From contig NZ_JBLYYF010000009.1 in the NCBI RefSeq assembly GCF_048550555.1, forward strand, positions 19-64,018: DNA of 64,000 bases, in the 5' to 3' direction. This document shows positions 7,742 to 23,949 of the stretch, one piece after another. The position numbers and the translations under genes are program-made. The notes beneath the pieces are model-generated. The model saw nothing but the letters and a program-made list of their open reading frames with translations, ran no database searches and was not told the DNA's origin. Numbering within the stretch: the stretch's first letter is position 1; every line of letters starts with the position of its first letter. Source of the stretch: Qipengyuania sp. (GTDB lineage Bacteria > Pseudomonadota > Alphaproteobacteria > Sphingomonadales > Sphingomonadaceae).

Positions 7742-8629
7742 TCAGGCTCCCTCTGTCTCGACGATCGCGTGCTGCGCGGCGAAGTCCTGGACAAGCTCGA
7801 CTGCCCGACGCGGTGCTTCCTCGTGGGCGAGGTGGCCCAGGCCTTCGAATCCCACCAGACGGCAATCGCGCAGCAATCGGCATGCGTCTTCCACCGACGA
7901 CAGGGGTACGGCGCTATCGTGGGTCCCGTGTGCGAGCATGACCGGGGCGTCGATTGTCGGCAGCCGATTGGCCAGCGCCGCGAGATCCCAATTGGCCATC
8001 ATTGCCAAGGCGCCTGCACAGTGTTCGCTGTTTCCCAGCAGGGTCGCATAGCAGCGCAAGCCCGTGGCATCGATCCGCGACTGCGTCGCGCGGTGGAGGA
8101 AGCGCTCGGTCTCGCCGGAGCCGCGCGCCATACGGGCGAAAATCGAAGGCACGAAGGGATTGACGAACAGCACTTTGGCGAGCGCGGGGAAGAGGCGCGC
8201 GGCGAGGCCGGGAAAGGGCATCAGCGCGGGGCTGAAGCCGATCGTCGGGCATGACGAGCGCACGGTCATCTGCAGCGCGATCGCTGCACCGGCCGAGTGA
8301 CCTGCAACCAGTGCGGGCTGTTCGCCGAGTTCCTCGACCAGGCAGCGCACTGCGTCGGCAACAGCGGGCAGGGTGGGACCCTTCGACAGCCTGCCGGACG
8401 TAAAGCCATGGCCAGGCAGGTCGGGCACGATGACGGTGAACCTCTGGGCCAGCGGACCGAGCATGTCGCGCCAGCTATGGGTCGATGCCCCGGTGCCGTG
8501 GAGCAACAGGAGGACGGGGCCCGATCCGGCGATCTGCACGTGCCACCGTAATCCTGCTGCCTCTATGAACCGGCTCGTCTCGCGGTTGGGCCAATCGCGG
8601 CCCTCGCGGTCCCAGCGCAGCGCGCTCAA
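7742..8629 (-). CDS. bchO: alpha/beta hydrolase, magnesium-chelatase-associated
   Basis: WDREGRDWPNR, LLLHGTGASTHSW, GHSAG; TTG start; follows bchD. Confidence 0.9.
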   Translation of the reverse strand: MSALRWDREGRDWPNRETSRFIEAAGLRWHVQIAGSGPVLLLLHGTGASTHSWRDMLGPLAQRFTVIVPDLPGHGFTSGRLSKGPTLPAVADAVRCLVEELGEQPALVAGHSAGAAIALQMTVRSSCPTIGFSPALMPFPGLAARLFPALAKVLFVNPFVPSIFARMARGSGETERFLHRATQSRIDATGLRCYATLLGNSEHCAGALAMMANWDLAALANRLPTIDAPVMLAHGTHDSAVPLSSVEDACRLLRDCRLVGFEGLGHLAHEEAPRRAVELVQDFAAQHAIVETEGA

Positions 8630-10305
8630 GCTGCCTGCGGCGAAGGACGCGCCGCTTCGACTGCCCGCCGGACTGCCGAGGCGTCCGCAACCGGAAGCGG
8701 CAGGTAGCGAGCGCGCATGGTGCGCGCGAGCGCCTCGGCTTCGGGCCGCGGCCGTGGCGCTATGTCGAGTACAAGCGCGGCAACGCCCCGCGTGGCGACT
8801 GCACGAGCGGCCACTTCCGCATCCTCGCGGGCCTGCGCGCGTCCCGGGATCCCGTCGGCAGCGATATTGGCGCTGCCATCGGTGAGGAAGACGAGAAAGG
8901 GTGTGGCGCCGTGCGAGGCGACGGTTTCGGCCAGCTTGCGCGCTGCCGTAATTCCCGAGGCCAGCGGCGTGCCGCCCCCTCCCGGCAAGTCAGCGAGTGC
9001 TCTCCTTGCGCGCGTCAGCGAGCGGGTCGGCGGCAGCAGCAGGTCCGCGCCATGGGCGCGAAAGGCGATCAGGGCCACCTCGCTCCGCGTGATATAGGCC
9101 TGCGCCAGCATCAGTTCGACTGCCCCCTTGGCCTCGGCAAGGCGAGCCATTGCGGCAGAACCCGAGGCATCGACGCAGAAGATGGTGACGGCAACCGACC
9201 GGTCCTCGAAGCGCCGAACCCTGAGATCCACCTTGCGAACCAGAAGGCCGGACGCGGCGGCTTCGCCCGCTTCGCGTCTGCGCAGCGGCTGCCAGGGGAC
9301 GGCCGCGCGTAGCGTGTCGATCAGTGCCAGACGCGCGCCGCCCCGGGGCATTCCAGGCCTTGCTCCCAGCGGTTTCCCGCGCAGTTTCGACTTTGCCCTG
9401 CGCCCGCCGCCGCTGCCGTTCGATCCGCGACGCGCGGCCCCGTTGGCCAGCCGCGCCAACAGATCGGCGGGTATTGCCGCCACGACCGCCTCGAGGATCC
9501 TTTCCTCTGCGGACTCCGACCTTCCGCTATCGTCCTCACCACCCTTGGCTTGCGCATCGGAGGATTGTGGCTCCGGCTGGCTTTCTTCCTCAGCCTCGGG
9601 AGCCGGCGGAAGACGCGTCGCCCTCGGAGCGAGCACCAGGCGGGCCGCCGCGCTCAGGTCCTCCTCGGCAAGGCTGGATCGACGGTTGAGCGCGGCATGC
9701 GCTCGCGCAGCCGTCAGGGCAAACATGAGCGCTCTGACCGACCCTATGCCGAGGAGGGTTGCGAGCCCAGCCAAGGTTGCCAAGGCCTCACCCTCGCCGG
9801 CTTCGACTTGTGCGACCGGCAATGCGGCCGGCGGCGAACGGACGGGCGCGAGGCGCACCCCGGTCAGATCGATCGAAAATGCCACGCGCTCTACCAAGGC
9901 CGAGGGCGGGGCCTGTTCGTCGCCGATACCGTCGTCGAGCAGGACAAGGCTGAAGCCACCATCGCGACCATCCATTGCCTGCGCCATCCGCCCGGCAATG
10001 GCATCGTTCAGCCGCTCGGCGCGCTGCACGAGCAAGACGCCGCCGCGCGCTTCGGCCAGCAAGCCGGCGTGCCCAACGCTCCGCCCTGCTGCAAGGCTGG
10101 CCGCGAGATCGATTCCTCCTAGCAGACGCTCGTCGTCGATGTTCGTGGGCAGGCGACGGACCGGCATCGCCTGTTGCAGCCGCTCGACCAGTGGCTCGCG
10201 TGCAGGACCGGGGCCGCGCAGGACCAGCCCGCCAAGTTGACTGGGCGCAACGAGAAACAGGTCGAGGGCGAGCGAGGCATCGTCGAAGGCCTCGCCCGTA
10301 CTCAT
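8626..10305 (-). CDS. bchD: magnesium chelatase subunit D
   Basis: Degenerate AAA N-terminus, Pro/Glu-rich linker and a VWA domain (VDASGSAAMARLAEAKGAVELML, GGGGTPLASG). Start ATG 10305 overlaps the bchI stop. Confidence 0.94.
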   Translation of the reverse strand: MSTGEAFDDASLALDLFLVAPSQLGGLVLRGPGPAREPLVERLQQAMPVRRLPTNIDDERLLGGIDLAASLAAGRSVGHAGLLAEARGGVLLVQRAERLNDAIAGRMAQAMDGRDGGFSLVLLDDGIGDEQAPPSALVERVAFSIDLTGVRLAPVRSPPAALPVAQVEAGEGEALATLAGLATLLGIGSVRALMFALTAARAHAALNRRSSLAEEDLSAAARLVLAPRATRLPPAPEAEEESQPEPQSSDAQAKGGEDDSGRSESAEERILEAVVAAIPADLLARLANGAARRGSNGSGGGRRAKSKLRGKPLGARPGMPRGGARLALIDTLRAAVPWQPLRRREAGEAAASGLLVRKVDLRVRRFEDRSVAVTIFCVDASGSAAMARLAEAKGAVELMLAQAYITRSEVALIAFRAHGADLLLPPTRSLTRARRALADLPGGGGTPLASGITAARKLAETVASHGATPFLVFLTDGSANIAADGIPGRAQAREDAEVAARAVATRGVAALVLDIAPRPRPEAEALARTMRARYLPLPVADASAVRRAVEAARPSPQAA

Positions 10306-11303
10306 CCAAACAGCACTGAAATTGCTCGCTCGATCCGGACCGTCGAGCCGACTTCGTCGAGGACGTCGCGGCGCAACCGGTGGCGCAGCGCCATCGGCGC
10401 CACTTCGAGGAGATGCTCCCTGCGCACGGATTTCGCGCCATTGAGCGCGGCGAGTGCGCGCGCCGCCCGCATCAGCGTGAGTTCGCCGCGCAGCCCATCG
10501 GCACCGACCGCGCGGCACAACTCGGCCATGTCCGCCATGACATCGTCGGGCACGTTCAATGAGGTGAGTTTCTTCTGCCCACGCGCGATCCGCCTGAGGA
10601 CCTTGTCGTCTTCGGCCTCCCAAGAGGCCGCGAAGCTGTCCGGGTCGGCCTCGTGTGCCGCACAGCGCCGCATGATCTCGACGCGCTGCTCGATTGCATC
10701 GGGCGTGCGCACTTCGACCGAAAGACCGAACCGGTCGAGCAGCTGCGGACGCAACTCCCCTTCCTCAGGGTTCCCGCTGCCAATGAGGACGAACTGCGCG
10801 CGATGACGGACTGACAGCCCCTCGCGCTCGACCAGGTTTTCGCCCGATGCGGCCACGTCGAGCAGCAGGTCGACGAGGTGGTCCTCGAGCAAATTGATCT
10901 CGTCGATATAGAGGAACCCGCGATGCGCTTTGGCCAGCAGGCCGGGCTCGAACGCCTTTTCGCCAGCGCGCAATGCGCGTTCGAGATCGAGCGCGCCGAG
11001 AACGCGATCTTCGGTCGCGCCCAACGGCAGGTCGACGAAGGGCACCGCGACCTTTCGTTTGCGCTGCGAGCTGCAGGGGTCCGGGCAGGTCCCGCGCTCG
11101 TCGGGGCGGCAATGGTAGCGGCATCCTTCGGCGATGGTCATCGGCGGGAGCAATGCGGCCAGCGCGCGTGCGGCGGTGGACTTTCCCGTGCCCCGGTCAC
11201 CGAAGACCATCACGCCGCCGATAGCGGGATCGGTCGCCGCAATCAGCAGCGCCAGCTTCATCTCGTCCTGCGCGACGATTGCCGAGAATGGGAACCGGGC
11301 CAT
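10302..11303 (-). CDS. bchI: magnesium chelatase subunit I
   Basis: FPFSAIV, GDRGTGKST Walker A, GATEDRVLGALD, LYIDEINLLEDH. Confidence 0.96.
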   Translation of the reverse strand: MARFPFSAIVAQDEMKLALLIAATDPAIGGVMVFGDRGTGKSTAARALAALLPPMTIAEGCRYHCRPDERGTCPDPCSSQRKRKVAVPFVDLPLGATEDRVLGALDLERALRAGEKAFEPGLLAKAHRGFLYIDEINLLEDHLVDLLLDVAASGENLVEREGLSVRHRAQFVLIGSGNPEEGELRPQLLDRFGLSVEVRTPDAIEQRVEIMRRCAAHEADPDSFAASWEAEDDKVLRRIARGQKKLTSLNVPDDVMADMAELCRAVGADGLRGELTLMRAARALAALNGAKSVRREHLLEVAPMALRHRLRRDVLDEVGSTVRIERAISVLFG

Positions 11304-11342
11304 GTGTCAATCCTTCTGGACGGATCGGTTCGTCTGGACAAG

Positions 11343-12620
11343 TTACTTGTTGGGCGGGCTCCGGAGAACGCGCTTCTTGACCAGCGAGGTCGCGAGCCAG
11401 ACGCCCAGCAGGACGGGGATGACGAGGATGCCCACAATCGTGTTCGACTCCCCATCCAGAACGCCTGGCGGAAGGCCATCCAACGCCATCTTGACCAGCC
11501 CGAGCGCATAGTAGCTGAGCGCCACGACCGAGAGCCCTTCGACGAGCTGCTGCAGGCGCAATTGCATCGAGCTGCTGCGCTCCATCGACGCGAGGAGGTC
11601 CGCGTTCTGGCTCTCGATCCGGGTTTCGACGCGCGCTCGTAGCAATGAGGACAGCTGCTCCGCACGCACAGCCAGTTCGCGCAGGCGCTCCGTGCTGGCC
11701 ACACAGGTATTCATGGCAGGGTGAAAGCGTCGCTGGGTAAAATCGTCGAGCGACGAGAAACCCTCGATCGCTCGCGGGGCGAGCTGCTCCAGCCGCTCTT
11801 CGACGATCTGGGCGTAAGCCTTCGTCGCGTCCATGCGGAATTGCATGGCAGTGGAAAGGCTGACGAGTTCGAGCGACAGACTGGAGAGCGCGTCGAGCAA
11901 GTGATCGTCGGGCTCCGCGCTGTTGGCGACGCGGTTCGAAAGGTCGCGCAGGCTCGCCTCCGCCGCGTTGAGATGCGGCCAGGATTCGCGCGCCAGCGGC
12001 AGGCCCAGGAGGGCGCGATTGCGATAGTTGCCGAGCTCCTGCAGTTGTTGCAGCGTCCTGGTGAGATCGCTGGCGTGCGTGTCGTTGGCGGCGACGACCA
12101 GCAGCCCGAAACCGTCTTGCTTGATCCGGAAATCCGACCACACCCGCATCTCGCCCGAGCCGACGTAGCATGACACCAGTTCGTCCCGCTCGAACTCGAT
12201 GCTGGCGACAATGCGTTCCGCCTCCGCTTCGTTTGCAACCAGAAGGATGCGGGTACTCCTGACGATTTCGCCCGGGAGCGATCTGGCCCATTCGAGGCCG
12301 ATCCGCAGCGCCTCGTCATTTTCGAGTTGGGGGTGGGGCGCGGCTGAATCGCCCTTCAAAAAGTAGGTCAGGCTGCTGCCTTCGCTATGACGCTCCCAGA
12401 CAAAGCGGAGGCCGCTCGCCGCCCAGCCGGACCGGTGAGAGGGGGCGAAGCCGGCGTCTTGAGGGTCCGACTTTGACTCGATCGCCGCCAGTTCCTCGGC
12501 ACGATCGTCGTCGGAAACCATCACAACCCACTGCAGGATCGTGCTGGGAACGTCGACTGCGGGCCATCTCCGCAGATGCATTTCCGAGACAGCTACCTTG
12601 CGGAGTTCATGGTCGCGCAT
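11343..12620 (-). CDS. DUF3422-family membrane-anchored protein
   Basis: E.H.RRWP N-terminus, VWERHSE, VWSDFR, QLRLQQLVEGLSVVALSYY plus two C-terminal TM helices. ATG 12620 has a GAGG RBS. Confidence 0.8.
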   Translation of the reverse strand: MRDHELRKVAVSEMHLRRWPAVDVPSTILQWVVMVSDDDRAEELAAIESKSDPQDAGFAPSHRSGWAASGLRFVWERHSEGSSLTYFLKGDSAAPHPQLENDEALRIGLEWARSLPGEIVRSTRILLVANEAEAERIVASIEFERDELVSCYVGSGEMRVWSDFRIKQDGFGLLVVAANDTHASDLTRTLQQLQELGNYRNRALLGLPLARESWPHLNAAEASLRDLSNRVANSAEPDDHLLDALSSLSLELVSLSTAMQFRMDATKAYAQIVEERLEQLAPRAIEGFSSLDDFTQRRFHPAMNTCVASTERLRELAVRAEQLSSLLRARVETRIESQNADLLASMERSSSMQLRLQQLVEGLSVVALSYYALGLVKMALDGLPPGVLDGESNTIVGILVIPVLLGVWLATSLVKKRVLRSPPNK

Positions 12621-12786
12621 GGGTCCCCTCGTTTCCTTCGTCGGGATGGCGACCCTATCGGTTTTGGATTGCAAGCGAAACGAGTCGTTGAATTGGCCTT
12701 CCTGATGGCCGGTTCTCTTGTCTCTGGACGAAGTCAAATGCGCGAGGTGAATCCTGCGGCACGCGCCGCCGAGCGATTCTCTCACC

Positions 12787-13070
12787 TCAGGGGTTCAGGA
12801 AGCTTTCGGGAAGCACGACATCGACTGGCTCGCCGAGCGCTTTGGCCGAGGTGCCGAGGGCAAAGCGATAGCGACCGCCTCGAATGTGCCTCCGGTCTTC
12901 GTCCCAATCGGCGAGGAGGCGCGGGTCGATTTCTAGCGTGACAGTCCGGGTTTCGCCGGGGTCGAGTTGGACGCGCTGAAATGCGGCGAGGCGCCGGAGA
13001 GGCCTGCCTGGGGGCAAGAAACCGCTGCGCGAAATATTCAGGATTTGTGCATTGCCGTGATCGGGTCCCT
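12787..13070 (-). pseudogene. C-terminal fibronectin-III-like fragment of a GH3 beta-glucosidase
   Basis: PLRRLAAFQRVQLDPGETRTVTLEIDPRLLADW...GGRYRFALGTSA. No catalytic domains upstream; the left boundary is approximate. Confidence 0.7.
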
Positions 13071-13516
13071 GATGAACCCCGACCAATAGATTGATGCTGT
13101 GACGCGGCTCCCCGCGCTTGGGTTCGGAGGTCTCGGCGCTTTGTCCCAGGATCGCACCTGCGCTCATAGGTCTCACTCTGACAAGGAGATGAGATGCCTG
13201 CAACCTCCCTATTACGTCATGACTGAAGTAACGCCGTGTTTTCACCTTCCGGCGTCAGCCACTCTCCAACAGTTGGGGGAACCAATAGAGGTATCGAGCA
13301 GACGATTGCTTCGTCCTATCGGTCTCGATGACTGCCGCATAGAATCCGTACTAGCTGATTGACCACTTCCGGTAGAAAGCCGCCCGTCGGCTTTGCGCCC
13401 CCATTTCGACCGTAGCGAGCATCCTTCCCGTTGCCGAGAAGCTGTCGTAAGATTTGCTTGAGATCGGGTGCCTTCGCGTTCTCCAATTGGCCAATCCTTG
13501 GCAGAGAAGAAATGCC

Positions 13517-13760
13517 ATGTGCTACTCACACTATGATCCGCCGATACAGGATTGAGCACCTTTGAATGCAGGAAAGAAAGTCGGGACCAAGCGACCACTG
13601 TCTCAGTAGCAGATATGGGCGGTTAGCTTCTTTCTCGAATGCGAGCAACGGACCAGAGACCGCGCGTTGTTCGATCTCGCAATCGACAGCAGGTTACGCG
13701 GCCGTGACTGGGTCAATCTCAGGATCGGCGACCTTGTAGCCAGCAGTGAGATCCGAAGGA
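13517..13760 (+). pseudogene. tyrosine recombinase/integrase N-terminal remnant
   Basis: Hand translation from ATG 13517: MCYSHYDPPIQD*APLNAGKKVGTKRPLSQ*QIWAVSFFLECEQRTRDRALFDLAIDSRLRGRDWVNLRIGDLV. In-frame stops TGA 13553 and TAG 13607, then truncated. Matches the common alphaproteobacterial RDRALFDLAIDSKLRGCD integrase type. Confidence 0.85.
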
Positions 13761-13879
13761 TCCATTGGAATATTCCTTCTGGAACTAGGCGCGCCTCGGC
13801 GTAAATAGTCCTAAACGTTATAATTCCGAAGGAGAAAATGCTTGAGCCTGTTTGCGCAAACCTCTTGTCGGACGCGGCC

Positions 13880-14515
13880 CTAGTCCGATCCATCGCGGAT
13901 GATGGTTAGCGCCTCGGCGAGATTTATGACCTCTGCATATTTCGCCTGCAGGTCGAACAGGTTTGCTTCGTGCGGAGCTTCGTGGCGATCAGCGCAGGCG
14001 TCGCGCACAACGAATGGCGCGAATTCGTTTTGGAGCGCATCGAGAGCGCTTGCACGGACACAGCCCGAGGTCGAGAACCCGCCGATGAGGAGCGTGCCGA
14101 TGCCAAGCGCGCGGAGGCGGCTGGCGAGTTGGGTTCCGAAGAAGGCCGAGGGGTATTGCTTCGTGACGAGCAGGTCGTCGGCATGTGGCTGCAAGGCAGG
14201 CGGGAATTCTCCCAATGGAGAGCCAACATCGAAAGACTTCAGCGCGGGGACCTTGCGATAGAACAGGCCTCCGTTCGCGCCGCCCGGCTCATATTCCACT
14301 TTGGTGAAAATCACCGGTCGGCCTACGCTGCGCGCGGCGTCCGCGAGCTTTGCCGCAACCTGCAACGCAGCGTCGGCGCTGGGGCAGTAGAACGGCGACC
14401 CTTCGGCCGTATAGGCCTGCACCATGTCGACCAGCAGCAGGGCAGGGAGGCTGCCGGGCTTCAAGTGCCCGTCATAAGTCGTGGCGTAGTTGGTGCCGAG
14501 GTTATCGTCTCCCAT
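13880..14515 (-). CDS. isochorismatase-family amidohydrolase (N-carbamoylsarcosine amidase/maleamate amidase-like)
   Basis: Asp-Lys-Cys triad motifs LLVDMV, VTKQYPSAFFGT and TSGCVRAS. Start ATG 14515. Confidence 0.88.
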   Translation of the reverse strand: MGDDNLGTNYATTYDGHLKPGSLPALLLVDMVQAYTAEGSPFYCPSADAALQVAAKLADAARSVGRPVIFTKVEYEPGGANGGLFYRKVPALKSFDVGSPLGEFPPALQPHADDLLVTKQYPSAFFGTQLASRLRALGIGTLLIGGFSTSGCVRASALDALQNEFAPFVVRDACADRHEAPHEANLFDLQAKYAEVINLAEALTIIRDGSD

Positions 14516-15711
14516 CAGACCACACCCTGCGCTTGCATGGCCTCCAACTCCCCAGCATCGATGCCGAGTAGTTCGCCGTAGATCGCTGCATTGTCCTGGC
14601 CCGGCCGCGACGGGGCCGGTCGCCTGACCGACGACGGCGTCTTCGAAAATTTCGGGAAGGCGTTCTGCATCTTGATCGGGCCGCGAGTCTCGGTCTCGAC
14701 CTTGATGATCGCCTCGCGCGCCTGGAAATGCGGATCGGCCAGCATCTCCCTCGCCGTATAGACACGGCCTGCGGGGATCGAGTGTTCGATCATCAGCGCA
14801 TCGACCTCGTCGATCGTCAACGTCGCTGTCCACGCGTTGACCAGCGCGTCCAGCTCGGTCTGGTTTTCGCCACGGGCGAGATGGGTCGCGTAGCGTGGAT
14901 CGTCGGCGAGCTCGGGCTGACCCATCGCGGTGGCAAGACGCGCAAAGATCGCGTCCTTGTTGGCCCCGATCATGAACGGGCCGTCCTTGCAGGTGTAGAC
15001 GTTCGAGGGGGCGATTCCGGGCAGGATCGACCCGGAGCGTTCGCGGATGTAGCCGTTGTAGTCGTATTCGGGGACGAGCCCCTCCATCACCTGCAGCACG
15101 GCCTCATAAAGCGCCGTGTCGATCACCTGACCCTCGCCTGTCTTTTCGCGGTGATGCAACGCGGCGAGCACGCCCATCGTGCCGTAGGTGGCACAAAGCG
15201 TATCGCCGATCGAGATGCCCATGCGCGCCGGCGGTCGGTCGGACTCGCCCACGACATAGCGCCAGCCGCCCATCGCCTCGCCGATGCCGCCGAAGCCGGC
15301 GCGATCCGAATAGGGGCCGTCCTGTCCGTATCCCGACATGCGCGCGATGATGAGCGAGGGCTTCTCGCGGAGTAATTCGTCCGGCCCCAAGCCCCATTTT
15401 TCGAGCGTGCCTGGCTTGAAGTTCTCGATCACGATATCGGCGGTCATGATCAGCTGGCGGGCGAGCGCCTGGCCCTCGGCAACGCGCAGGTTGCAGGTGA
15501 CCGAGCGCTTGTTGCGGCCGATGACCTCCCACTGTACCTTTTCCTCGCCCTGGCCCCAGACGCGCATGGGATCGCCCGCGCCGGGCGGCTCGACCTTGAT
15601 GACTTCGGCGCCCATGTCGCCGAGCAGCTGGCCGCAGAATGGCCCGGCGAGCAGCTGGCCGAGTTCGACCACGCGCAGGCCGGCAAGGGCACCGGGCGAA
15701 ACCGAGGTCAC
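14515..15711 (-). CDS. CaiB/BaiF family III CoA transferase
   Basis: LAGLRVVELGQLLAGPFCGQLLGDMGAEVIKVEPPGAGDPMR, ENFKPG, GYGQDGPY. Confidence 0.93.
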   Translation of the reverse strand: MTSVSPGALAGLRVVELGQLLAGPFCGQLLGDMGAEVIKVEPPGAGDPMRVWGQGEEKVQWEVIGRNKRSVTCNLRVAEGQALARQLIMTADIVIENFKPGTLEKWGLGPDELLREKPSLIIARMSGYGQDGPYSDRAGFGGIGEAMGGWRYVVGESDRPPARMGISIGDTLCATYGTMGVLAALHHREKTGEGQVIDTALYEAVLQVMEGLVPEYDYNGYIRERSGSILPGIAPSNVYTCKDGPFMIGANKDAIFARLATAMGQPELADDPRYATHLARGENQTELDALVNAWTATLTIDEVDALMIEHSIPAGRVYTAREMLADPHFQAREAIIKVETETRGPIKMQNAFPKFSKTPSSVRRPAPSRPGQDNAAIYGELLGIDAGELEAMQAQGVV

Positions 15712-17603
15712 TCAGCTGCCTCCGCCATCCGGACGTGGGCCCATTCGGGCTGCACCGGGGCGTTGAGCCCGGTCTCCGCCTGGCAATTGGCGCGCAGCTC
15801 CTCGATCGAGGGGCCGTAGTCGAACAACTTGTCCTCCACGCGCGCAGCCCGCATCGCGTCGCGCAGGGAGGCCGTCGCAGCCTCGTCGACCGTTCCGCTG
15901 GTATCGGCGACGACGCCGTAGTCCCGCGCGCCTTCAGGCGTCACCAGCCCCTGTCTGATCTCCAGCCCGACCATCGCCGGATCGCGGTCGAGCGGATCAC
16001 CCCAGCCGCCGCCGCCCCAGGTGATGTAATGCAGCTGGTCGCCCGCGCGCACGGCGATGTCGTCGGCCTTATTGCCGACGATCTCGGTCGTGCCATCGGC
16101 GCGTTCGAGGACCTTTCTCGCCCGCATGCCCGGCAGGCCGTTGTTGACGCCCCAGGGGGGCACGAACCAGCGGTCGTCGTGGATGCCGATCTGCCCGTCG
16201 GCGAGGAAGCGGTAGGTCATGTGGATGCCGTTGCCGCCGCGGTGCAGGCCCGCCCCGCCGCTGTCGGGCTCTGTCTCGTAGCGCTCGATGCGCATCGGGA
16301 AGTAGCGTTCGAGGAATTCGTTCGGCACGTTGGTGAAGCCGGGCCATAGCGAATGGCCGTCCGGCCCGTCGCCCAATGGCCTGCCGGGAATGCCGCCGAA
16401 GCCGATCTGGAAGAGCTGGAACCACTCGCCTTCGCGCCCCTCCCGGTTGTCCCAGCCGGAATAGAACAGGTGGGGGGAGGAGCTGAAACCCGCGGCATTG
16501 AGGAACTCAGGGGTCTTCTGCCCCAATAGTCCGCCGAGGATATCGAAGATACGCCCGAGAGCATGGGTGCGACCCGACAGGGCTGCCGGGAACTTAGGCT
16601 TGAGGAGCGATCCTTCGGGGATGCGGACCTCGATCAGGTCGTAGAACCCGTCGTTGAACAGGATCTGCGGATCGAAGACCATGATCATGTAGATGCCGAA
16701 GAACATCTTGAACATGTTCTCGTTGAGATAGAAGTTGATCGAGGCCGCGCTCTGCGGGTCGGTGCCCTCGAAATCGAGGATCACCTTGTCGCCCTCGCGC
16801 CACATGGTGCACTTGATCCTGTAGGGGCCAAAGCCGAGCCCGTCGTCGCAGATGTAGTCCTCGAAGCTGACCGGTTCCTCGGCCACCGCCATCCCGATCA
16901 GCGCCTTCATCGCGCGGTGGTTGCGCGCCAGCAGTTCCTTCGTCGCCGAGACATAGACATCGTCGCCGAAGCGGTTCGCCATTTCCACCACGCGGTTGGC
17001 GGCGACGCGGCAGGAGGCGATGAGCGCGTTGAGATCGGCCTGGCACCAGTCGGGCTTGCGCGTCTGGTGCATGACCAGCTTCATCAGGTCTTCGTTGTAT
17101 TCGCCCTTGCGCCAGATCTTCACCGGCGGAATGCGCACGCCTTCCTCGAAGATCGACTTGGCATCGATAGGCATGGAGCCGACGACCTTGCCGCCGATAT
17201 CGCTCTGGTGGCCGAACATGGCGGTCCAGGCGAGCAGGCGACCGTCCTTGTAGACCGGCAGCAGCACCAGCCAGTCGTTCGAATGGCTGATTGCGCCCTC
17301 GCAGGAATAGGGATCGGACAGGAAGATCATATCCCCGTCCTCGATCGTCCCGTCGAAGCCCTTGAGGAAGCCGTCGATGAAACTGCCGAATTGGCCGACG
17401 ATCATCTTGCCGTCGGGATCGGCGATCAGCGGGAAGGCATCGCCCTGTTCGCGAATGCCGGGCGACATGGCGGTACGCACCAGCGTCGCATCCATCTCGA
17501 TCCGGGCATTGCGCAGCGCGTTCTCGATGATGTCGAGCGTAACGGGGTCGATCACGACCTTGCCGAAGGGCGTGGTGTTTTCCTGGATGATCTGGGCGGG
17601 CAT
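15708..17603 (-). CDS. hydantoinase B/oxoprolinase family subunit
   Basis: DIIENAL...RTAMSPGIRE, HSNDW, EEGVRIPPVK, GGGGWGDPLDRDP. Start ATG 17603 with a GAGG RBS. Confidence 0.92.
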   Translation of the reverse strand: MPAQIIQENTTPFGKVVIDPVTLDIIENALRNARIEMDATLVRTAMSPGIREQGDAFPLIADPDGKMIVGQFGSFIDGFLKGFDGTIEDGDMIFLSDPYSCEGAISHSNDWLVLLPVYKDGRLLAWTAMFGHQSDIGGKVVGSMPIDAKSIFEEGVRIPPVKIWRKGEYNEDLMKLVMHQTRKPDWCQADLNALIASCRVAANRVVEMANRFGDDVYVSATKELLARNHRAMKALIGMAVAEEPVSFEDYICDDGLGFGPYRIKCTMWREGDKVILDFEGTDPQSAASINFYLNENMFKMFFGIYMIMVFDPQILFNDGFYDLIEVRIPEGSLLKPKFPAALSGRTHALGRIFDILGGLLGQKTPEFLNAAGFSSSPHLFYSGWDNREGREGEWFQLFQIGFGGIPGRPLGDGPDGHSLWPGFTNVPNEFLERYFPMRIERYETEPDSGGAGLHRGGNGIHMTYRFLADGQIGIHDDRWFVPPWGVNNGLPGMRARKVLERADGTTEIVGNKADDIAVRAGDQLHYITWGGGGWGDPLDRDPAMVGLEIRQGLVTPEGARDYGVVADTSGTVDEAATASLRDAMRAARVEDKLFDYGPSIEELRANCQAETGLNAPVQPEWAHVRMAEAAE

Positions 17604-17613
17604 GGCTTCGTCC

Positions 17614-19662
17614 TCAGGCAGGGTTGATCTGAATATTACCGACGGCATCGACGGTGGCGACGCAGCCGGTTTCCACCAGCGTAGTCGAATCCATTTCGGT
17701 GATGATGGCGGGGCCGGGGATCGTGTCGCCCTGTTTCAGGCGCGAGCGGTCATAGATCACCGCGGCCTGTTCGCGCCCGTCCATCCATAGTGCGTGGTCG
17801 CGGATCTTGGCAGCCGAGAGATCGCCGGTCCCTTTTTCCAGCTCGGCCGCGGGCAATTGCGGCGCCTCACCCAGCGCCACGGCGCGCAGGTTCACAATCT
17901 CGTGCGGCGTTTCCATGTTGAAGGTGAAGAGACGGCGATGCTCTTCATCAAATCGAGCAAGGATGCCCTCGATGCCTTTCTCGCGCAGGGTCGCTTGGTC
18001 TATCGTGAGCGGCACTTCGAAAGCTTGCCCGGCATAGCGCACGTCGACCTCGAATTCGCTGGTCACCTGGCTTTCGGGGATGCCGTCATTGGTCAGTTCG
18101 GTCCGGGTCTGGGCGGCCATTTCGTCGAGCACCGCGACGAGTTCCTCGACCTTAGTTTCGGTGGCGAGGCGGTTGAAGCTGCGCGCGGTCTCGGTCCGCA
18201 TGCGCGTGGTGGCATCGCCGAGCGCGCACAGCACGCCGGGCGACACCGGGCTGATTGCGGGCCAACTGCCCATCAGCTTGGCGACCGCATTGACGTGCAG
18301 CGGACCTGCTCCGCCGAAGCCCATCAGCGCGAAGTGTCGGGGATCGTAGCCCTGCTGGACGCTGATCATCCGCAGCGCGCCGAACATGTTCTCGTTGACG
18401 ATATCGATGATCCCGCGCGCGGCCTCCATCAACGGAATGTCTAGCGCATCGGCGATGGTCTGGACGGAGCGTTTGGCGCCTTCGCGATCGAGCTTGAACG
18501 CACCCCCCAGCAGATCCTCAGGCAGATAGCCGAGCACGACGTTGGCATCTGTCACGGTCGGCTTGTCGCCGCCCTTGCCATAGGCGACGGGCCCCGGCAC
18601 CGCGCCCGCGCTTTCAGGCCCTACGCGCAATGCGCCGGTGAGTTCAGGGACATAGGCGATAGAACCGCCGCCGGCGCCCACCGTCTTCACATCGAGAGAG
18701 GAGGCGCGGACCGACAGGTGGCCGACCTCGGTCGTCCGTATCCGGCGCGGCTCGAGGTTCTCGATCAGCGCAACGTCGGTCGAAGTGCCGCCCACGTCGA
18801 GCGTGAGGATGTTCTTGAAGCCCGCATTCTTCGCGACCCAGAGGGCTCCCGTTACGCCGCCCGCCGGGCCGGACATGAGGATGTTGACCGGGTGTTCCTC
18901 GGCCTTCTGGCTGCTCATCAAGCCGCCGTCCGAGCGCAGCAGCGACAGCTTGCCGGTGACGCCGGCGTGCTTGAGCTTGGTGCGCAGGTTCGAGACGTAT
19001 TTCCCGACCACCGGCCGCACCGAGGCGTTGGCGACGGTGGAGAGCGTGCGCTCGTATTCCTGCATCTCGGGCAGCACTTCATGGCTCAGCGAGACCGGAA
19101 TATCGGGCATGATCTCCTGCGCGATCTCGCCGATGCGCTGTTCGTTGCGCCCGTCGACATAGGCGTTGATGAGGCTGACCGTGATCGCTTCCACGCCGGA
19201 ATCGCGCAACTGGGTCAGCTTCTGCCGGATTTCCGCTTCGTCTAGCGGGCGAACTTCCTTGCCGTCGGCATCCATCCGCCCCTTGATCGTGACCGTGTCC
19301 TCGAGCGCGGCAAGCGGCTGCGGCTTGGGCCAGACGATCCATGCAGCAAGGCCGCCCGGCACGAAGCTGCGTGCGATCTGCATTATGTCACGATAGCCCT
19401 CGGTCGTTACCAAGCCGACCCGCGCACCCTTGCCTTCGAGCACAGCATTGGTCGCGACAGTGGTTCCGTGGAGGAAGAACTCGATCTCGCCCGGATCGAC
19501 GCCGGCAGCCTGCGTGATCTCGGTGACACCGTTGAGGATGCCTTCCGAACTGTCGTGCGGGGTGGAGGGCGTCTTGTCGCGCCAGAAGCGGCCGGTCTCG
19601 TTGTCGAACAGCAGGAGATCGGTGAAGGTGCCGCCGACATCGACGCCAAGCCGGTAACGCAT
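17614..19662 (-). CDS. hydantoinase A/oxoprolinase family ATP-binding subunit
   Basis: GVDVGGTFTD, HGTTVATNA, DVGGTSTDV, GAGGGSIA. Start ATG 19662. Confidence 0.93.
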   Translation of the reverse strand: MRYRLGVDVGGTFTDLLLFDNETGRFWRDKTPSTPHDSSEGILNGVTEITQAAGVDPGEIEFFLHGTTVATNAVLEGKGARVGLVTTEGYRDIMQIARSFVPGGLAAWIVWPKPQPLAALEDTVTIKGRMDADGKEVRPLDEAEIRQKLTQLRDSGVEAITVSLINAYVDGRNEQRIGEIAQEIMPDIPVSLSHEVLPEMQEYERTLSTVANASVRPVVGKYVSNLRTKLKHAGVTGKLSLLRSDGGLMSSQKAEEHPVNILMSGPAGGVTGALWVAKNAGFKNILTLDVGGTSTDVALIENLEPRRIRTTEVGHLSVRASSLDVKTVGAGGGSIAYVPELTGALRVGPESAGAVPGPVAYGKGGDKPTVTDANVVLGYLPEDLLGGAFKLDREGAKRSVQTIADALDIPLMEAARGIIDIVNENMFGALRMISVQQGYDPRHFALMGFGGAGPLHVNAVAKLMGSWPAISPVSPGVLCALGDATTRMRTETARSFNRLATETKVEELVAVLDEMAAQTRTELTNDGIPESQVTSEFEVDVRYAGQAFEVPLTIDQATLREKGIEGILARFDEEHRRLFTFNMETPHEIVNLRAVALGEAPQLPAAELEKGTGDLSAAKIRDHALWMDGREQAAVIYDRSRLKQGDTIPGPAIITEMDSTTLVETGCVATVDAVGNIQINPA

Positions 19663-20606
19663 CAGGCCAGTTCCTCTTTTCGTTTTGTTTCTGGGCGCGG
19701 GAAGCCGCCCGCCTTGCCCACCATCGCAGGCAGTTGCTTCTCCATGACGCCGGCGAGCCAGCGATTGGTTTCGATCAGCAGGTCGAGGTCGAAGCCGGTC
19801 GCAATGCCCGCCCGCTCGAGCATGTAGACGACGTCCTCGGTCGCGACATTGCCGGCAGCACCGGGGGCGAAGGGGCACCCGCCGAGGCCTCCGATCGATG
19901 CGTCGACGACGGTTGCGCCCGCCCCGATGGCCGCCCAGAGATTGGCAAGGCCTGTGCCGCGCGTGTTGTGGAAATGCACCCGCACGGGAAGGGGGGCAAT
20001 CGCATCGCGAACGCGGGTCACGAGACGCTCGACATGCGCGGGATTGCCGACGCCGATCGTGTCGGCGAGCGCGATCTCGACCGGATCGGCTTCAGCGATT
20101 GCCTCGGCCATGGCAAGAACCCTGTCTTCCGCCACCTCGCCTTCGAAGGGACAACCGAAGCTCGCAGCAATGGTCGCCTGTCCGGTAAGGCCAGCGGCTT
20201 GAGCACGGCGGATGATGTCCTTGGATGCTTCGACCGACCCGTCGCTTGTCTGCCCCTGGTTGGCCATAGCGAAGCGGTCTGTCGTGACCGCGACCGCGCC
20301 GAGCTGGTCGATCCGACCGGTGGCGATCGCCCGTTCCGCCCCGCGCGGATTCATGACGAGGCCGATGAAAGTCACGTCGTCACGCTGGGGCAGTCCCGCG
20401 CAGACCTGCTCCGCACCGGCCATTTGCGGGACCGCTTTCGGATTGACGAAGCTCGTCACCTCGATCCGTCGCGCACCGGTCGCGATGGCCTGCTCGATCA
20501 GCGTCAGCTTGTCGGCGGTTGCAACAATTGCGCGCTCGTTCTGGAGCCCGTCGCGCGGGCTCACTTCGACCATTTCGATCGAGGATGTATACATTTTATC
20601 GGTCAT
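19662..20606 (-). CDS. HMG-CoA lyase family acyl-CoA lyase
   Basis: EVSPRDGLQNE, HFHNTRG, GGLGGCPFAPGAAGNVATED. Confidence 0.92.
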   Translation of the reverse strand: MTDKMYTSSIEMVEVSPRDGLQNERAIVATADKLTLIEQAIATGARRIEVTSFVNPKAVPQMAGAEQVCAGLPQRDDVTFIGLVMNPRGAERAIATGRIDQLGAVAVTTDRFAMANQGQTSDGSVEASKDIIRRAQAAGLTGQATIAASFGCPFEGEVAEDRVLAMAEAIAEADPVEIALADTIGVGNPAHVERLVTRVRDAIAPLPVRVHFHNTRGTGLANLWAAIGAGATVVDASIGGLGGCPFAPGAAGNVATEDVVYMLERAGIATGFDLDLLIETNRWLAGVMEKQLPAMVGKAGGFPRPETKRKEELA

Positions 20607-21283
20607 GCCCCGCGCTTGCGCTCCTGCCTGTCGATTGCAGTGAGGCCACGATGCGCATCTGCGTAGGCGTGGAAGGCGCGGCGGATGTGGCCCGACATGA
20701 TCGAGTTGGCCCACGCGCCGTCCCGGCGCGCGAAGGCGGCGAGCAATTCGTCATGCTCGCCGCATGATCGGCGGAGTTCCTCCGCACCATAGTGATGGGC
20801 GGTCCGCCAGACGACCGGCTGCTCTATCACCGAGGCGAGCAATGAGACCAGCTTGCGCGAACCGGCCGCCTCAATGATCAGTGCGTGGAATTCCTTGTTT
20901 CGCTCGAGGAAGCGATCGACATCGGGCGGGCTGGCCTGGACGGCGTCTCGCAAGTCGGCATTGCAGGCGCGCAGCGACCTGAGGGCCTCGTCGCCCATCC
21001 GCTCGGCGGCGCGCTGCGCGGCATGGCCCTCCAGCATCGCCCGCAGCTCGAATACATCGGCGACATCGTCGAGCGACCAGTCGGCGACGAAGCTGCGCTG
21101 CGTGTCGGTACGGCTTATAAGCATGTCGGCCTCGAGCCTGCGCAGAGCGTCGCGCACGGGCGTTCGGGAGACGCCGCAGCGTTCTGCCAACGCCTCCTCC
21201 CCGAGCGCCCCGCCGGGCGCGAGTTCGCCCGACATGATCATCTCGCGGATGGCGTTGTAGGCGCGATCGGATGCGCGCGACAT
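20603..21283 (-). CDS. GntR (FadR/FCD) transcriptional regulator
   Basis: wHTH LAERCGVSRTPVRDAL and an FCD-type C-terminus. ATG 21283 with an AGGAG RBS. Confidence 0.92.
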   Translation of the reverse strand: MSRASDRAYNAIREMIMSGELAPGGALGEEALAERCGVSRTPVRDALRRLEADMLISRTDTQRSFVADWSLDDVADVFELRAMLEGHAAQRAAERMGDEALRSLRACNADLRDAVQASPPDVDRFLERNKEFHALIIEAAGSRKLVSLLASVIEQPVVWRTAHHYGAEELRRSCGEHDELLAAFARRDGAWANSIMSGHIRRAFHAYADAHRGLTAIDRQERKRGA

Positions 21284-21313
21284 GGTTCTCTCCTGACGGC
21301 TTGACCGACTCGA

Positions 21314-21325
21314 ATTGTATACAAT
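21314..21325. promoter_or_regulatory. candidate GntR/FadR operator
   Basis: Perfect palindrome ATTGTATACAAT in the short divergent promoter region between gntR and the TonB receptor. Confidence 0.7.
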
Positions 21326-21397
21326 AAGGATATTGCGTCGCAAGTCACATTTGCCGCCCGAAAATTTTACCGGGCCGACAGACGGGGAGATTTCCGT

Positions 21398-23914
21398 ATG
21401 CGTTCGTTCAAGACGCTTCTGCTTGCCACCATTGCCGCAAGTCCGTTCACCGCCACCGCAGTTTCGGCGCAGGGGCAAAGCGAAACGGAAGCGAATGAGG
21501 CGGGTGGCGACGTGATCATCGTCACTGCGCGCAGGCAAAGCGAGCGTCTGCAGGACGTGCCGGCCTCGGTCTCGGTCCTTACTGCCGACGCGCTCCAAAA
21601 GACCGGTGCCGACAGTGCCGACGATTTCGCCCAGCTCACGCCGGGCGTGACGATCGTGACCGGTACCGCCGAAGCGGGCGACACGCAGATCAACATCCGC
21701 GGGATCAACGGTGCCCGCGATGCTGAAAGTTCGGTTGCGCTGGTGGTCGACGGCATACTCAAGACCAACACCGCGCAGCTCAATCAGCCACAGGGCACGC
21801 TCCAGCAGGTCGAAATCCTCAAGGGCCCGCAGGGCGCGCTCTACGGTCGGAACGCAGCAGCCGGTGCGATCGTCCTGCAAACCCTAAAGCCGGGCGACGT
21901 CTTCGAAGGCGCCTTGCAAGCATCCTATGCCAACGAGAACACGTTCGAAGCGACCGCCCATGTGGCGGGCCCGATTGCCGAGAATCTGGGCTTTGTCCTG
22001 TCCGGCTATTACCGCACCACCGACGGATTCTATCGGAACACCTTCCTCGATGCGAAAGTCGTCGACGACCAAGAGGTCTGGACCGTCGATGGACGGCTCG
22101 TCGCGGACCTCGGCGAAGCCACAGAGCTCGACGTTAAGGCCCGCTACTCGCAGCTGCGCGGCGCGTCGATCAACTTCAACGCCTCCTTCCACCTGCCCAA
22201 TTTCGCGGCTGTGAATCCGGCCTTCTACGAGGACGTGAACCGCCACGAGTTCAATTATTACAGCAACATTCGCCCGACCAACGAGCAGGACAGCTTCGAC
22301 ATCTCGGCTAAGGTCGAGCACCGTTTCGGCAGTGACCTCGTCCTCACCGCATGGGCGCTTTACTCTGATATCCAGCAAAGTCTGACGGCGGACGGCACAT
22401 CCGCCGATTTCGCACGCTACATCGCCGCCGCCGATCCGGCGGGCGCGACAGCGGTCAATTCCTGCTTCGCAACTACCGCAGCCCTGACCGGCTTCCCGGT
22501 AAACCAGCCTGGTTTCATCGGGCAGATCCCGGTGCCTTTCATCTTCGCTCCCGCCAACGGCTCGACCTTCGGCGCCTACAGCCCTTCGACTTGCGACGGC
22601 ACCCAGCTTCAGACGCGCGACCAGCGCGACATCAGTGCTGAAATCCGCCTCGCCTCGGACAGCGGCGGTCCGTTCAACTGGCAGCTAGGCGTCTATTATC
22701 TCAACATCGACCGCGAGACAGGCGTCAGCCTTGGCGCGGACACCGGCGCAGGTGTCCTGCCGACGCTTTACAACGGTCCGAACAGTTCCAACCCTACCTC
22801 GCTGTTACTCAACGACAGCTTCAAGACTGATGTCTACGCGGCCTTCGGTTCGATCGACTACGAAATCACGCCCGAATTCGATCTCGGCCTCGCCCTGCGC
22901 TACGATATCGAGGATCGCTCGACGGCATCGCTCGTCCCGACCGCCACGGACCCCTTCACCGGCGGTCCGATCAATCCGGGGCAGGCCTTCGGCGCGCTGG
23001 CCCCCAAGGATGCGACGTTCAAGCAGCTGCAGCCCAAGGTCAGCCTGAGCTATCGGCCGATGCCGAACCTCAACCTCTATGCGAATTGGGGAATCGGCTT
23101 CAAATCGGGCGGCTTCAACAACCAAGGTTCATCGACGATCATCGATCAGAACTTCAACCAGTTCATCGGCTCGAACGTCACGATCGAGGACCAGTACCGC
23201 AAGGAAACCTCGAGCGCGATCGAAGTGGGCATCAAAGGCGAAACGGCGGGCGGTCGTCTGACATTCGATCTCGCGGGATATTACACCGAGATCGACGACA
23301 TGCAGTTCTTCGAATTCTTCGTCGGCCCCTTCGGCCTGCTGCGCGTCGTCTCGAACATCGACAAGGTGAAGGTCAAAGGGTTCGAGGCAAACGTCGGCGC
23401 GGAGATCGTCGACGGGTGGAAGCTATACAGTGCGCTCAACGTGACCGACAGCGAGATAACGGCCAACAGCTCTCGGCCCGATACCGTCGGCAACAAGTCG
23501 CCCTATACGGCCGACTGGACGCTCAACATCGGGACCGAGATCGATACGCCGCTCACCGACGCGATCGACCTGATCCTGCGCGCTGACTATCGCCTGACCG
23601 GCCCGACCTGGTTCCATTCGGTCCAGGATCAGGAGCGTCCGACGTTGTTCAGCGGCCTTCTGCCAATCTCGGCGCTGGGCTTGCCGGCGTTCGTCGGCAA
23701 CGCCCGCTACGACGTCGCGCAACGCGACACCTTCGGCGTGCTGAACGTGCGGGCAGGCCTCGACTTCGGCAAATTCAACGCAGCCGTCTTCGCCAACAAC
23801 GTGCTCGACGAAGAGTATCTCAACGAAGTCATCCCGGCCATCGAGTTCGGCGGCTCCTTCATTTCACCTGGCGCTCGGCGGCTGGTTGGCGTGGAACTGG
23901 GATACAAATTCTGA
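21398..23914 (+). CDS. TonB-dependent receptor
   Basis: Signal peptide, IIVTARRQSERLQDVP, VEILKGPQGALYGRNAAAG, C-terminal ELGYKF. Confidence 0.95.
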   Translation: MRSFKTLLLATIAASPFTATAVSAQGQSETEANEAGGDVIIVTARRQSERLQDVPASVSVLTADALQKTGADSADDFAQLTPGVTIVTGTAEAGDTQINIRGINGARDAESSVALVVDGILKTNTAQLNQPQGTLQQVEILKGPQGALYGRNAAAGAIVLQTLKPGDVFEGALQASYANENTFEATAHVAGPIAENLGFVLSGYYRTTDGFYRNTFLDAKVVDDQEVWTVDGRLVADLGEATELDVKARYSQLRGASINFNASFHLPNFAAVNPAFYEDVNRHEFNYYSNIRPTNEQDSFDISAKVEHRFGSDLVLTAWALYSDIQQSLTADGTSADFARYIAAADPAGATAVNSCFATTAALTGFPVNQPGFIGQIPVPFIFAPANGSTFGAYSPSTCDGTQLQTRDQRDISAEIRLASDSGGPFNWQLGVYYLNIDRETGVSLGADTGAGVLPTLYNGPNSSNPTSLLLNDSFKTDVYAAFGSIDYEITPEFDLGLALRYDIEDRSTASLVPTATDPFTGGPINPGQAFGALAPKDATFKQLQPKVSLSYRPMPNLNLYANWGIGFKSGGFNNQGSSTIIDQNFNQFIGSNVTIEDQYRKETSSAIEVGIKGETAGGRLTFDLAGYYTEIDDMQFFEFFVGPFGLLRVVSNIDKVKVKGFEANVGAEIVDGWKLYSALNVTDSEITANSSRPDTVGNKSPYTADWTLNIGTEIDTPLTDAIDLILRADYRLTGPTWFHSVQDQERPTLFSGLLPISALGLPAFVGNARYDVAQRDTFGVLNVRAGLDFGKFNAAVFANNVLDEEYLNEVIPAIEFGGSFISPGARRLVGVELGYKF

Positions 23915-23949
23915 CGAGGAATTCGCCGATAGGTTGGAAGAGAATTATT

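Follow-up and report, generated by a model that had tools for sequence, protein, structure and literature searches.

A self-contained GntR/FCD regulon of Sphingomonadales with a predicted role in the catabolism of a small cyclic amide

Introduction

We report on a block of seven genes at positions 13880–23914 of a 64,000-nt stretch of DNA (hereafter, the window) from contig NZ_JBLYYF010000009.1 of Qipengyuania sp. (GCF_048550555.1), a sphingomonad whose 2.94-Mb genome is 95% complete. The block brings together a GntR-family regulator, a putative ATP-dependent ring hydrolase of the HyuA/HyuB family, an amidase, a coenzyme A (CoA) transferase, an acyl-CoA lyase and a TonB-dependent receptor. This set recurs across bacterial classes, and we argue that it may constitute a catabolic regulon for a small cyclic amide.

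Genes of such clusters are routinely misnamed as 5-oxoprolinase, N-methylhydantoinase, 3-hydroxy-3-methylglutaryl (HMG)-CoA lyase or isochorismatase. An initial annotation of the window had instead described the set as an orphan pathway, a view that agrees with our reading of the literature, in which no published description of this gene set or of a matching pathway was found; a report on methylsuccinate and itaconate (PMC12290011) proved unrelated to the gene set. The components all belong to known families and their chemical logic has precedents, while their combination is not described in the literature found. Knowing the substrate would bring to light an additional catabolic pathway, a novel role for ATP-dependent ring hydrolases and a nutrient that is worth a dedicated TonB receptor to aquatic oligotrophs. 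As a self-contained regulon with a genome-unique operator, the locus is experimentally tractable and suited to a reporter-based ligand screen.

Gene content and organization

The reverse strand of the block carries six genes. The first encodes a GntR-family regulator with an FCD ligand domain (20603–21283; 226 aa, PF00392 and PF07729), the ATG of which, at 21283, is preceded by a GGAGAG ribosome-binding site. It is followed by genes for an acyl-CoA lyase of the HMG-CoA-lyase type (HMGL-like, DRE-TIM; 19662–20606, 314 aa, PF00682), the ATP-binding subunit HyuA (17614–19662; 682 aa, PF05378, PF01968 and PF19278), the metal-dependent hydrolytic subunit HyuB (15708–17603; 631 aa, PF02538 over its full length), a family III (CaiB/Frc-type) CoA-transferase (14515–15711; 398 aa, PF02515 over its full length) and an isochorismatase-family cysteine amidase, or half-amidase (13880–14515; 211 aa, PF00857). 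On the forward strand, and divergent from gntR across an intergenic region of 114 bp, lies the gene of a TonB-dependent outer-membrane receptor (21398–23914; 838 aa) with a signal peptide, a Plug domain and a beta-barrel (PF07715 and PF00593).

From gntR to the amidase gene, successive junctions measure −4, −1, +10, −4 and −1 nt, and guanine-cytosine (GC) content is 0.62–0.68 across most of the locus. The initial annotation had proposed six coupled genes with overlaps or gaps of at most 10 nt, a divergent TonB receptor and the family of each product; the coordinates sustain the first two claims, and Pfam and NCBIfam searches sustain all of the family assignments. One database record places the start of the amidase at residue 18, but the start at 14515 is supported by related locus L001, where homology sets in immediately at the stop codon of the CoA-transferase gene. 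At the DNA level, synteny with the nearest relatives spans exactly 13929–23917. Because these bounds match the block, and because the set recurs in 46–57 of 57 related loci, the arrangement of the genes is not due to chance.

Conservation and distribution

A scan of species-representative genomes identified more than 560 stretches encoding relatives of HyuB, and the 80 best of these, all from Sphingomonadales and with HyuB identities of 83–93%, were examined as related loci. Co-occurrence was counted in 57 sphingomonad loci and in 22 metagenome loci of a second lineage, each with enough flanking sequence. HyuA and the CoA-transferase are found near HyuB in every locus of both sets (57/57 and 22/22), and the lyase in all of the sphingomonad loci and 20 of the 22 metagenome loci. 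The receptor is present in 56/57 and 17/22 loci and the amidase in 46/57 and 17/22, while the GntR-FCD regulator accompanies HyuB in all 57 sphingomonad loci and in a single metagenome locus (1/22). Co-occurrence of the lyase and the amidase with the HyuAB pair, which had been proposed as a check on the initial annotation, is thus conserved across bacterial classes, as is that of the receptor.

Identity to the window HyuA is 80–91% in sphingomonad loci and 52–57% in other lineages. Outside the class, HyuB was found at 63–66% identity in four sampled genomes, and in a second sample such a HyuB is also carried by 7 of 401 genomes, from seven families. The receptor of a cluster in another proteobacterial class is 38–39% identical to the window receptor over ~870 aa. 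Other lineages present the same set in different gene orders and orientations, with PrpR-like sigma-54 activators, GntR-UTRA or IclR proteins as the cluster regulators, and the same gene pattern is seen in 80 marine or aquatic metagenome contigs. Overall, the module occurs in ~2% of sampled Pseudomonadota genomes outside the home family, is abundant in marine and freshwater metagenomes, and is also found in very small genomes, one of them of 1.7 Mb.

Sphingomonad clusters come in at least two forms, with lyases that are 72–83% and 52–57% identical to the window lyase (the loci of the two forms include L007, L010, L014–L016, L037–L039, L045, L050 and L051). Some loci of the latter form have a divergently oriented CoA-transferase gene, with a product ~56% identical to that of the window, and many of them place one racemase gene and two SnoaL genes in the interval from the receptor gene to gntR. 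Among eukaryotic and fused relatives (49–54% identity), the sole functional lead was another adjacency of HyuAB and isochorismatase-family genes. Protein P0124, a fused 1287-aa HyuAB that is 49% identical to the window HyuB, is encoded directly after an isochorismatase-family gene. The P0124 operon also contains a second, split HyuA/HyuB pair, Ldh_2, Aminotran_4, a beta-eliminating lyase, AtuA and DUF4387, and it appears to be another uncharacterised ring-amide cluster.

Regulation of the block

Two predicted operators lie within the block. Operator 1 is the perfect palindrome ATTGTATACAAT at 21314–21325, in the divergent promoter region between gntR and the receptor gene, where a minus-strand −10-like TACAAT overlaps it, as does a promoter-like stretch at 21343–21314 that is a consensus match only. 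The position of this −10-like hexamer over operator 1 was the one result of a terminator and promoter scan that did not stand at chance level. Operator 2, the palindrome ATGTATACAT at 20585–20594, is located at the junction of gntR and the lyase gene and covers lyase codons 4–8.

The sequence TGTATACA occurs twice in the window against zero expected occurrences, and the extended form WTGTATACAW has only two copies in the whole 2.94-Mb genome, both at this locus. The octamer was found in 69 of the 80 related loci (133 sites in 1.48 Mb), usually at these same two positions and nowhere else in ~20 kb; operator 2 keeps its position relative to the lyase start in related loci, and operator 1 is kept upstream of gntR. 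When one mismatch was allowed in TTGTATACAA, nine genome sites were obtained against seven for the control, and no further regulon members emerged. The block is a self-contained GntR/FCD regulon, since the palindrome is unique in the genome, its positions are conserved and additional sites do not exceed the control. The GntR/FCD protein is probably an autoregulated repressor of the operon; it would repress both promoters from the two TGTATACA palindromes and would be released by the substrate or by an acidic intermediate.

HyuA and HyuB

HyuA contains its three family domains and keeps the N-terminal motif DVGGTFTD, an ATP motif of the ASKHA type. Its score on the NCBIfam model for the caprolactamase alpha subunit is 541 bits, below the cut-off of 1000, and the pair reaches no NCBIfam equivalog, the caprolactamase models NF050156 and NF050157 giving 541 and 216 bits against cut-offs of 1000. 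HyuB covers profile positions 1–519 of PF02538 and has as best solved relatives the fused N-methylhydantoinase 7hk5 (232 bits) and the caprolactamase subunit CapB (6yra, 211 bits). In the alignment to CapB, an Asp of HyuB matches Asp41, and SHSND and FGHQSD match SHILD and KGHLTD, with the H-x-x-D and G-H motifs kept. The conserved Asp of the DVGGTFTD-type motif and the Asp-His-Asp-His metal tetrad of caprolactamase have both been described (PMC8453981). By homology with caprolactamase and oxoprolinase, HyuAB is predicted to act as an ATP-dependent cyclic-amide hydrolase.

Close described counterparts are the caprolactamase CapAB of Pseudomonas jessenii (6yra) and the valerolactam lactamase of P. 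putida, which are likewise two-subunit ATP-dependent lactamases with the metal tetrad and the ATP motif. The CapAB pathway differs in proceeding through an aminotransferase and beta-oxidation rather than through an amidase, a CoA-transferase and a lyase, and the scores of HyuAB miss the caprolactamase equivalog cut-offs.

Public records label the proteins of the operon as 5-oxoprolinase or N-methylhydantoinase, and the HyuAB family does include carboxylases, so the pair could be conceived of as a plain 5-oxoprolinase or ketone carboxylase that happens to lie beside unrelated CoA-ester genes. Several observations make this very improbable. The genome encodes a second, fused HyuA-HyuB open reading frame (ORF) of 1202 aa (contig C20, ~63276–64799) that outscores the operon copy on the Hydantoinase_B model and is more likely, on these scores, to be the housekeeping 5-oxoprolinase; a search of this 95%-complete genome for PxpA (LamB_YcsF) returned no hit. 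Linkage of HyuB with the CoA-transferase, the lyase, the amidase and the receptor is conserved across classes and through rearrangements, which likewise separates the operon HyuAB from a housekeeping 5-oxoprolinase. Membership of the acetone/acetophenone carboxylases is contradicted by gene content, as the coupled operon has room for two subunit genes only and lacks a third, gamma-type subunit gene, and by similarity, the acetophenone and acetone carboxylase chains scoring 124 and 44 bits with HyuB, far below the 211–232 bits of the hydrolases.

The amidase

The best solved relative of the amidase is 3ot4/3uao, deposited as a putative isochorismatase (125 bits), followed by N-carbamoylsarcosine amidohydrolase and then by 4l07, an isochorismatase-family hydrolase (112 bits). 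We take 3ot4/3uao to be the maleamate amidohydrolase NicF and 4l07 to be the maleamate amidase Ami. Alignments to 3ot4, 26st and 4l07 reveal intact Asp/Lys/Cys motifs (LLVDM, VTKQYPSAF and TSGCVRAS) and a preserved C-terminal DR..PHEANLFD block, in which the DR arginine presumably binds the substrate carboxylate. The triad and the C-terminal Arg block place the protein in the maleamate/N-carbamoylsarcosine amidase subgroup, and a look-up in the ESM Atlas returned generic isochorismatase clusters only. Both maleamate and N-carbamoylsarcosine are carbamoyl-carboxylates, isosteric with one another, and correspond to a five-membered imide and a hydantoin, respectively, after ring opening.

This likeness to NicF and Ami does not extend to genomic context. 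The locus lacks a ring dioxygenase, a deformylase and a maleate isomerase, and none of the nicotinate (nic) genes NicC/NicX, NicD and NicE was seen among the seven genes or their flanks. A second precedent is the cyclic-imide pathway of Blastobacter sp. A17p-4, in which an imidase and then a half-amidase reportedly yield a dicarboxylate. The sequence of imide, half-amide, and dicarboxylate plus ammonia is the same as that proposed here, but the Blastobacter imidase is said to be an ATP-independent enzyme of the dihydropyrimidinase type, whereas the locus combines an ATP-dependent HyuAB with CoA-ester cleavage.

The N-methylhydantoin branch of creatinine degradation offers a third comparison, since there too an ATP-dependent HyuA/HyuB ring opening is followed by an isochorismatase-family amidase, in the same order. 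The locus is nevertheless devoid of creatinine deaminase and sarcosine oxidase genes and adds a CoA-transferase, an HMG-CoA-lyase-type enzyme and a TonB receptor. On this model, a 5-substituted hydantoin would be converted to an N-carbamoyl amino acid and then to the amino acid, the CoA-transferase and the lyase acting in a later or side step. Such a route would suit an N-methylhydantoinase as the best solved relative of HyuB, the proximity of the amidase to N-carbamoylsarcosine amidase and the allantoin/hydantoin type of an accessory racemase found in sister clusters. We nonetheless consider it quite unlikely: no aminotransferase, oxidase or deaminase that could process an amino acid is encoded in the conserved block, the LeuCD paralogs of sister clusters do not act on amino acids, and the CoA-transferase and the lyase, which are more strictly conserved than the amidase, would be left without a role.

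The CoA-transferase and the lyase

The CoA-transferase matches profile positions 1–366 of PF02515 with 425 bits, which places it in family III. Its best NCBIfam model, the succinate-glutarate CoA-transferase, gives 272 bits against a cut-off of 750, and another near model, the succinyl-CoA:mesaconate CoA-transferase, likewise remains below cut-off. Solved relatives are 4ed9, the formyl-CoA transferase 10uh and the succinate-hydroxymethylglutarate CoA-transferase 9br7. Overall, the protein resembles the dicarboxylate-specific members of the family.

The lyase exceeds the cut-off of the NCBIfam HMG-CoA lyase subfamily NF004283 (291.8 bits against 246), and its motifs PRDGLQNE, HFHNTRG and GLGGCPFAPGAAGN align with those of the solved HMG-CoA lyases 6nds, 1ydo, 2ftp and 2cw6. 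Among the residues concerned, we take the Arg-Asp of PRDGLQNE, a Glu, the HxH, the Cys of GLGGCP and an Asn to be catalytic. It is probably not of the leucine-catabolic LiuE type, as it neither groups with the second lyase of genomes that have two nor sits in a liu gene context. In a tree with two outgroup rows only, and hence with no established root, all 24 cluster-linked lyases split from the second copy that genomes G019 and G373 each encode (100% support in the SH-like approximate likelihood-ratio test, SH-aLRT), and this separation argues for a dedicated lyase type. Each of the two second copies adjoins a same-strand ORF of 530–558 aa, which in G373 ends with a KMEH stretch that we read as a biotin-carrier motif.

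These features leave room for a route through a six-membered imide, in which a glutarimide-type ring would give 3-hydroxy-3-methylglutarate, to be activated by a SUGCT-like CoA-transferase and split by a true HMG-CoA lyase into acetoacetate and acetyl-CoA. The subfamily score and catalytic motifs of the lyase are what such a route would predict, as is the resemblance of the CoA-transferase to 9br7 and to the succinate-glutarate model, and four Erythrobacteraceae genomes, that of the window (G000) together with G359, G140 and G311, have no gene of the HMG-CoA-lyase type besides the cluster lyase. Yet the nearest relatives of the amidase take four-atom carbamoyl-carboxylates and not glutaramates, the LeuCD and MaoC proteins of sister clusters act on malate/maleate-type acids or CoA esters and not on HMG, and the cluster lyase falls in a separate group where a genome has a second copy. 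We also know of no natural HMG-type imide, and we regard the route as unlikely.

For the preferred five-membered ring, a different pair provides a close parallel to these two enzymes. The Chloroflexus (R)-citramalyl-CoA lyase is a member of the HMGL-like family. Together, (R)-citramalate CoA-transferase and lyase are an established enzyme pair (EC 2.8.3.20 and EC 4.1.3.46), in which a family III CoA-transferase is combined with a lyase for the cleavage of a 2-substituted malyl-CoA to acetyl-CoA and a 2-oxo acid, and the last two steps proposed for the block would mirror it (PMC8307300). The two systems are likened here on their described reactions, and the Chloroflexus pair differs in serving carbon fixation or assimilation and in not being joined to ring-opening enzymes.

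Accessory genes of sister clusters

Genes that join the cluster elsewhere provide hints about the carbon skeleton of the substrate. Three sampled genomes, belonging to two families, and 7 of the 22 long metagenome loci encode LeuC and LeuD within the cluster, either beside the amidase gene or elsewhere in it; these proteins exceed the leuC and leuD cut-offs and are extra copies beside a housekeeping leuC. LeuCD enzymes of the aconitase family interconvert alkylmaleates and 2- or 3-alkylmalates. In one locus, a MaoC-type hydratase pair and a CoA ligase take the place of LeuCD. An Asp/Glu/hydantoin-racemase-family gene and two SnoaL-like genes accompany the cluster in 15 of the 57 sphingomonad loci, as well as in another lineage. 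The best solved relatives of this racemase are allantoin and hydantoin racemases, which implies a ring stereocentre adjoining a carbonyl; its identification as a NicE-like maleate isomerase was dropped, given that no maleate isomerase matched at E ≤ 0.01. Taken together, the accessory genes appear to point to a small alkyl- or hydroxy-substituted C4-dicarboxylate skeleton of the malate/maleate kind, not to a tricarboxylate or an HMG-type glutarimide.

Other cluster genes are sporadic and encode VOC, alpha/beta-hydrolase, zinc-dependent alcohol dehydrogenase, aldo-keto reductase and aldehyde dehydrogenase proteins. On L081, a metagenome contig with a HyuB 62% identical to that of the window, an enolase-superfamily MR/MLE gene (8882–9979) separates hyuA from hyuB; among NCBIfam models, the L-talarate/galactarate dehydratase comes nearest to its product (204 bits, below cut-off).

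The receptor

The receptor reaches no NCBIfam equivalog and scores 151.9 bits on the TonB-siderophore subfamily model, against a cut-off of 223.5. The conserved block contains no iron-type regulator, no reductase and no inner-membrane ABC or MFS importer, and no Fur-box-like sequence was seen on reading the 114-bp control region. Control by the GntR operators sets the locus apart from siderophore uptake and utilisation loci.

The initial annotation had suggested a cyclic imide or lactam of a 3-hydroxy di- or tricarboxylic acid, citing citrate- or siderophore-derived imides as candidates. A cyclic imide remains the best-fitting class, but a tricarboxylate is disfavored by the LeuCD, MaoC and racemase accessories. 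Recycling of a citrate- or siderophore-derived imide would make sense of a TonB receptor that is an integral, conserved part of the cluster, and citryl-CoA is formally an analogue of HMG-CoA. This origin of the substrate is nevertheless most improbable: besides the missing iron-related functions and the receptor score, citrate or aconitate would reach the tricarboxylic acid (TCA) cycle without a CoA-transferase and a lyase, the hydratase recruited by sister clusters is LeuCD and not aconitase, and the accessory genes point to a C4-dicarboxylate.

Proposed pathway

We estimate a probability of roughly 55% that the block is a catabolic regulon for a small cyclic amide, with a scheme that leads from an imide to a half-amide, a diacid and the cleavage of a CoA ester; here we infer both the reactions and their order. 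The likeliest substrate is a cyclic imide with a five-membered ring, or else a hydantoin-like ureide, that carries alkyl and/or hydroxy groups on carbon, and the lack of an inner-membrane transporter in the conserved block suggests that it is small and uncharged. The TonB-dependent receptor would carry the compound across the outer membrane, after which HyuA would activate the ring amide with ATP and HyuB would hydrolyse it at its metal site to a half-amide, H2N-CO-C-C-COO-. The NicF/CSHase-type cysteine amidase would then free ammonia and leave a substituted dicarboxylate of the maleate/malate type. An unsaturated or wrong-isomer product could be converted by a LeuCD-type hydratase/isomerase, a dedicated paralog in some lineages and the housekeeping copy here. 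Finally, the family III CoA-transferase would form a CoA thioester, and the HMG-CoA-lyase-type enzyme would cleave it by a retro-Claisen reaction into an acyl-CoA and a 2-oxo acid, the products being acetyl-CoA and pyruvate from a citramalyl-type ester, or acetoacetate if the acid were HMG-like.

A number of points weigh against this interpretation, beginning with the fact that every reaction in it is deduced from family membership. The amidase is missing from 11 of the 57 sphingomonad loci and is only 35–37% identical between lineages, so it may be accessory to the pathway; a GC3-filtered scan for ORFs in loci without it yielded no usable candidate. The lyase retains all of the HMG-CoA lyase motifs and is the only lyase of its kind in the four Erythrobacteraceae genomes named above, so it could be an ordinary HMG-CoA lyase or have a double role with leucine catabolism; the host genome does encode isovaleryl-CoA-dehydrogenase-like and MccB-like carboxyltransferase genes (contig C20, 29000–47000). 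The same genome carries a single leuC and none of the accessories, be it a dedicated hydratase, a racemase or a SnoaL protein: the window contains neither racemase nor SnoaL genes, and a search of the 95%-complete genome did not recover the racemase. For want of a dedicated hydratase, any unsaturated substrate of the maleimide type would have to rely on the one housekeeping LeuCD. The racemase, which calls for an sp3 ring carbon, and LeuCD, which calls for maleate or malate, fit one substrate family only loosely. ATP-independent imidases are usually enough for simple imides, so that only an unusually stable ring would explain why ATP is needed here.

Opening of a lactam instead of an imide has also been considered. 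An oxindole- or pyrrolidinone-type lactam with 3-hydroxy and 3-carboxymethyl substituents, such as the oxidised auxin dioxindole-3-acetate, would then give a 2-substituted malate directly, and the amidase would be a side activity. IaaCE of Aromatoleum, a HyuAB-like enzyme, is said to be associated, alongside a family III CoA-transferase, with the anaerobic degradation of auxin, and the racemase and SnoaL-like proteins would suit the acidic C3-H of an oxindole. One source lists IaaCE among hydantoinase-like hydrolases with homology to caprolactamase (PMC8453981), and the iad pathway strips an acetyl unit from dioxindole-3-acetate as a CoA ester (PMC12633357). An amidase present in ~80% of clusters would be left unexplained, however, no genes for an aromatic product lie in or near the regulon, and the cluster occurs in very small genomes, all of which renders a lactam substrate improbable.

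Within the class of five-membered cyclic imides, a speculative and rather unlikely proposal is that the module mineralises monopyrrolic imides formed in water by light-driven or chemical oxidation of chlorophylls, bacteriochlorophylls and bilins. Candidates are alkyl-substituted maleimides and succinimides such as ethylmethylmaleimide, methylethylidene-succinimide and imides of the hematinic-acid type. Dialkyl-substituted rings strongly favor the closed form, which would account for the need for ATP. The racemase-like and SnoaL-like proteins would funnel in sp3 or ethylidene isomers, LeuCD would hydrate the dialkylmaleate, and the CoA-transferase and the lyase would release a 2-oxo acid and an acyl-CoA. 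If true, this proposal would amount to an undescribed microbial sink for pigment-derived carbon and nitrogen.

Flanking region

Directly downstream of the operon, at 12787–13880, GC content falls to 0.55, and the sole ORFs encode a 152-aa protein consisting only of an Fn3-like domain (PF14310), a domain that occurs at the C-terminus of family-3 glycosidases, and a 118-aa product without a family. This interval resembles the remains of a gene at the edge of a rearrangement, and synteny with the closest relatives stops at 13929. Farther downstream, the segment at 8626–12785 encodes a ChlI/BchI-like AAA protein (333 aa) and an AAA-lid/VWA protein (665 aa), beside a DUF3422 gene (480 aa); the AAA and VWA genes may form a BchD-like or a MoxR-VWA pair.

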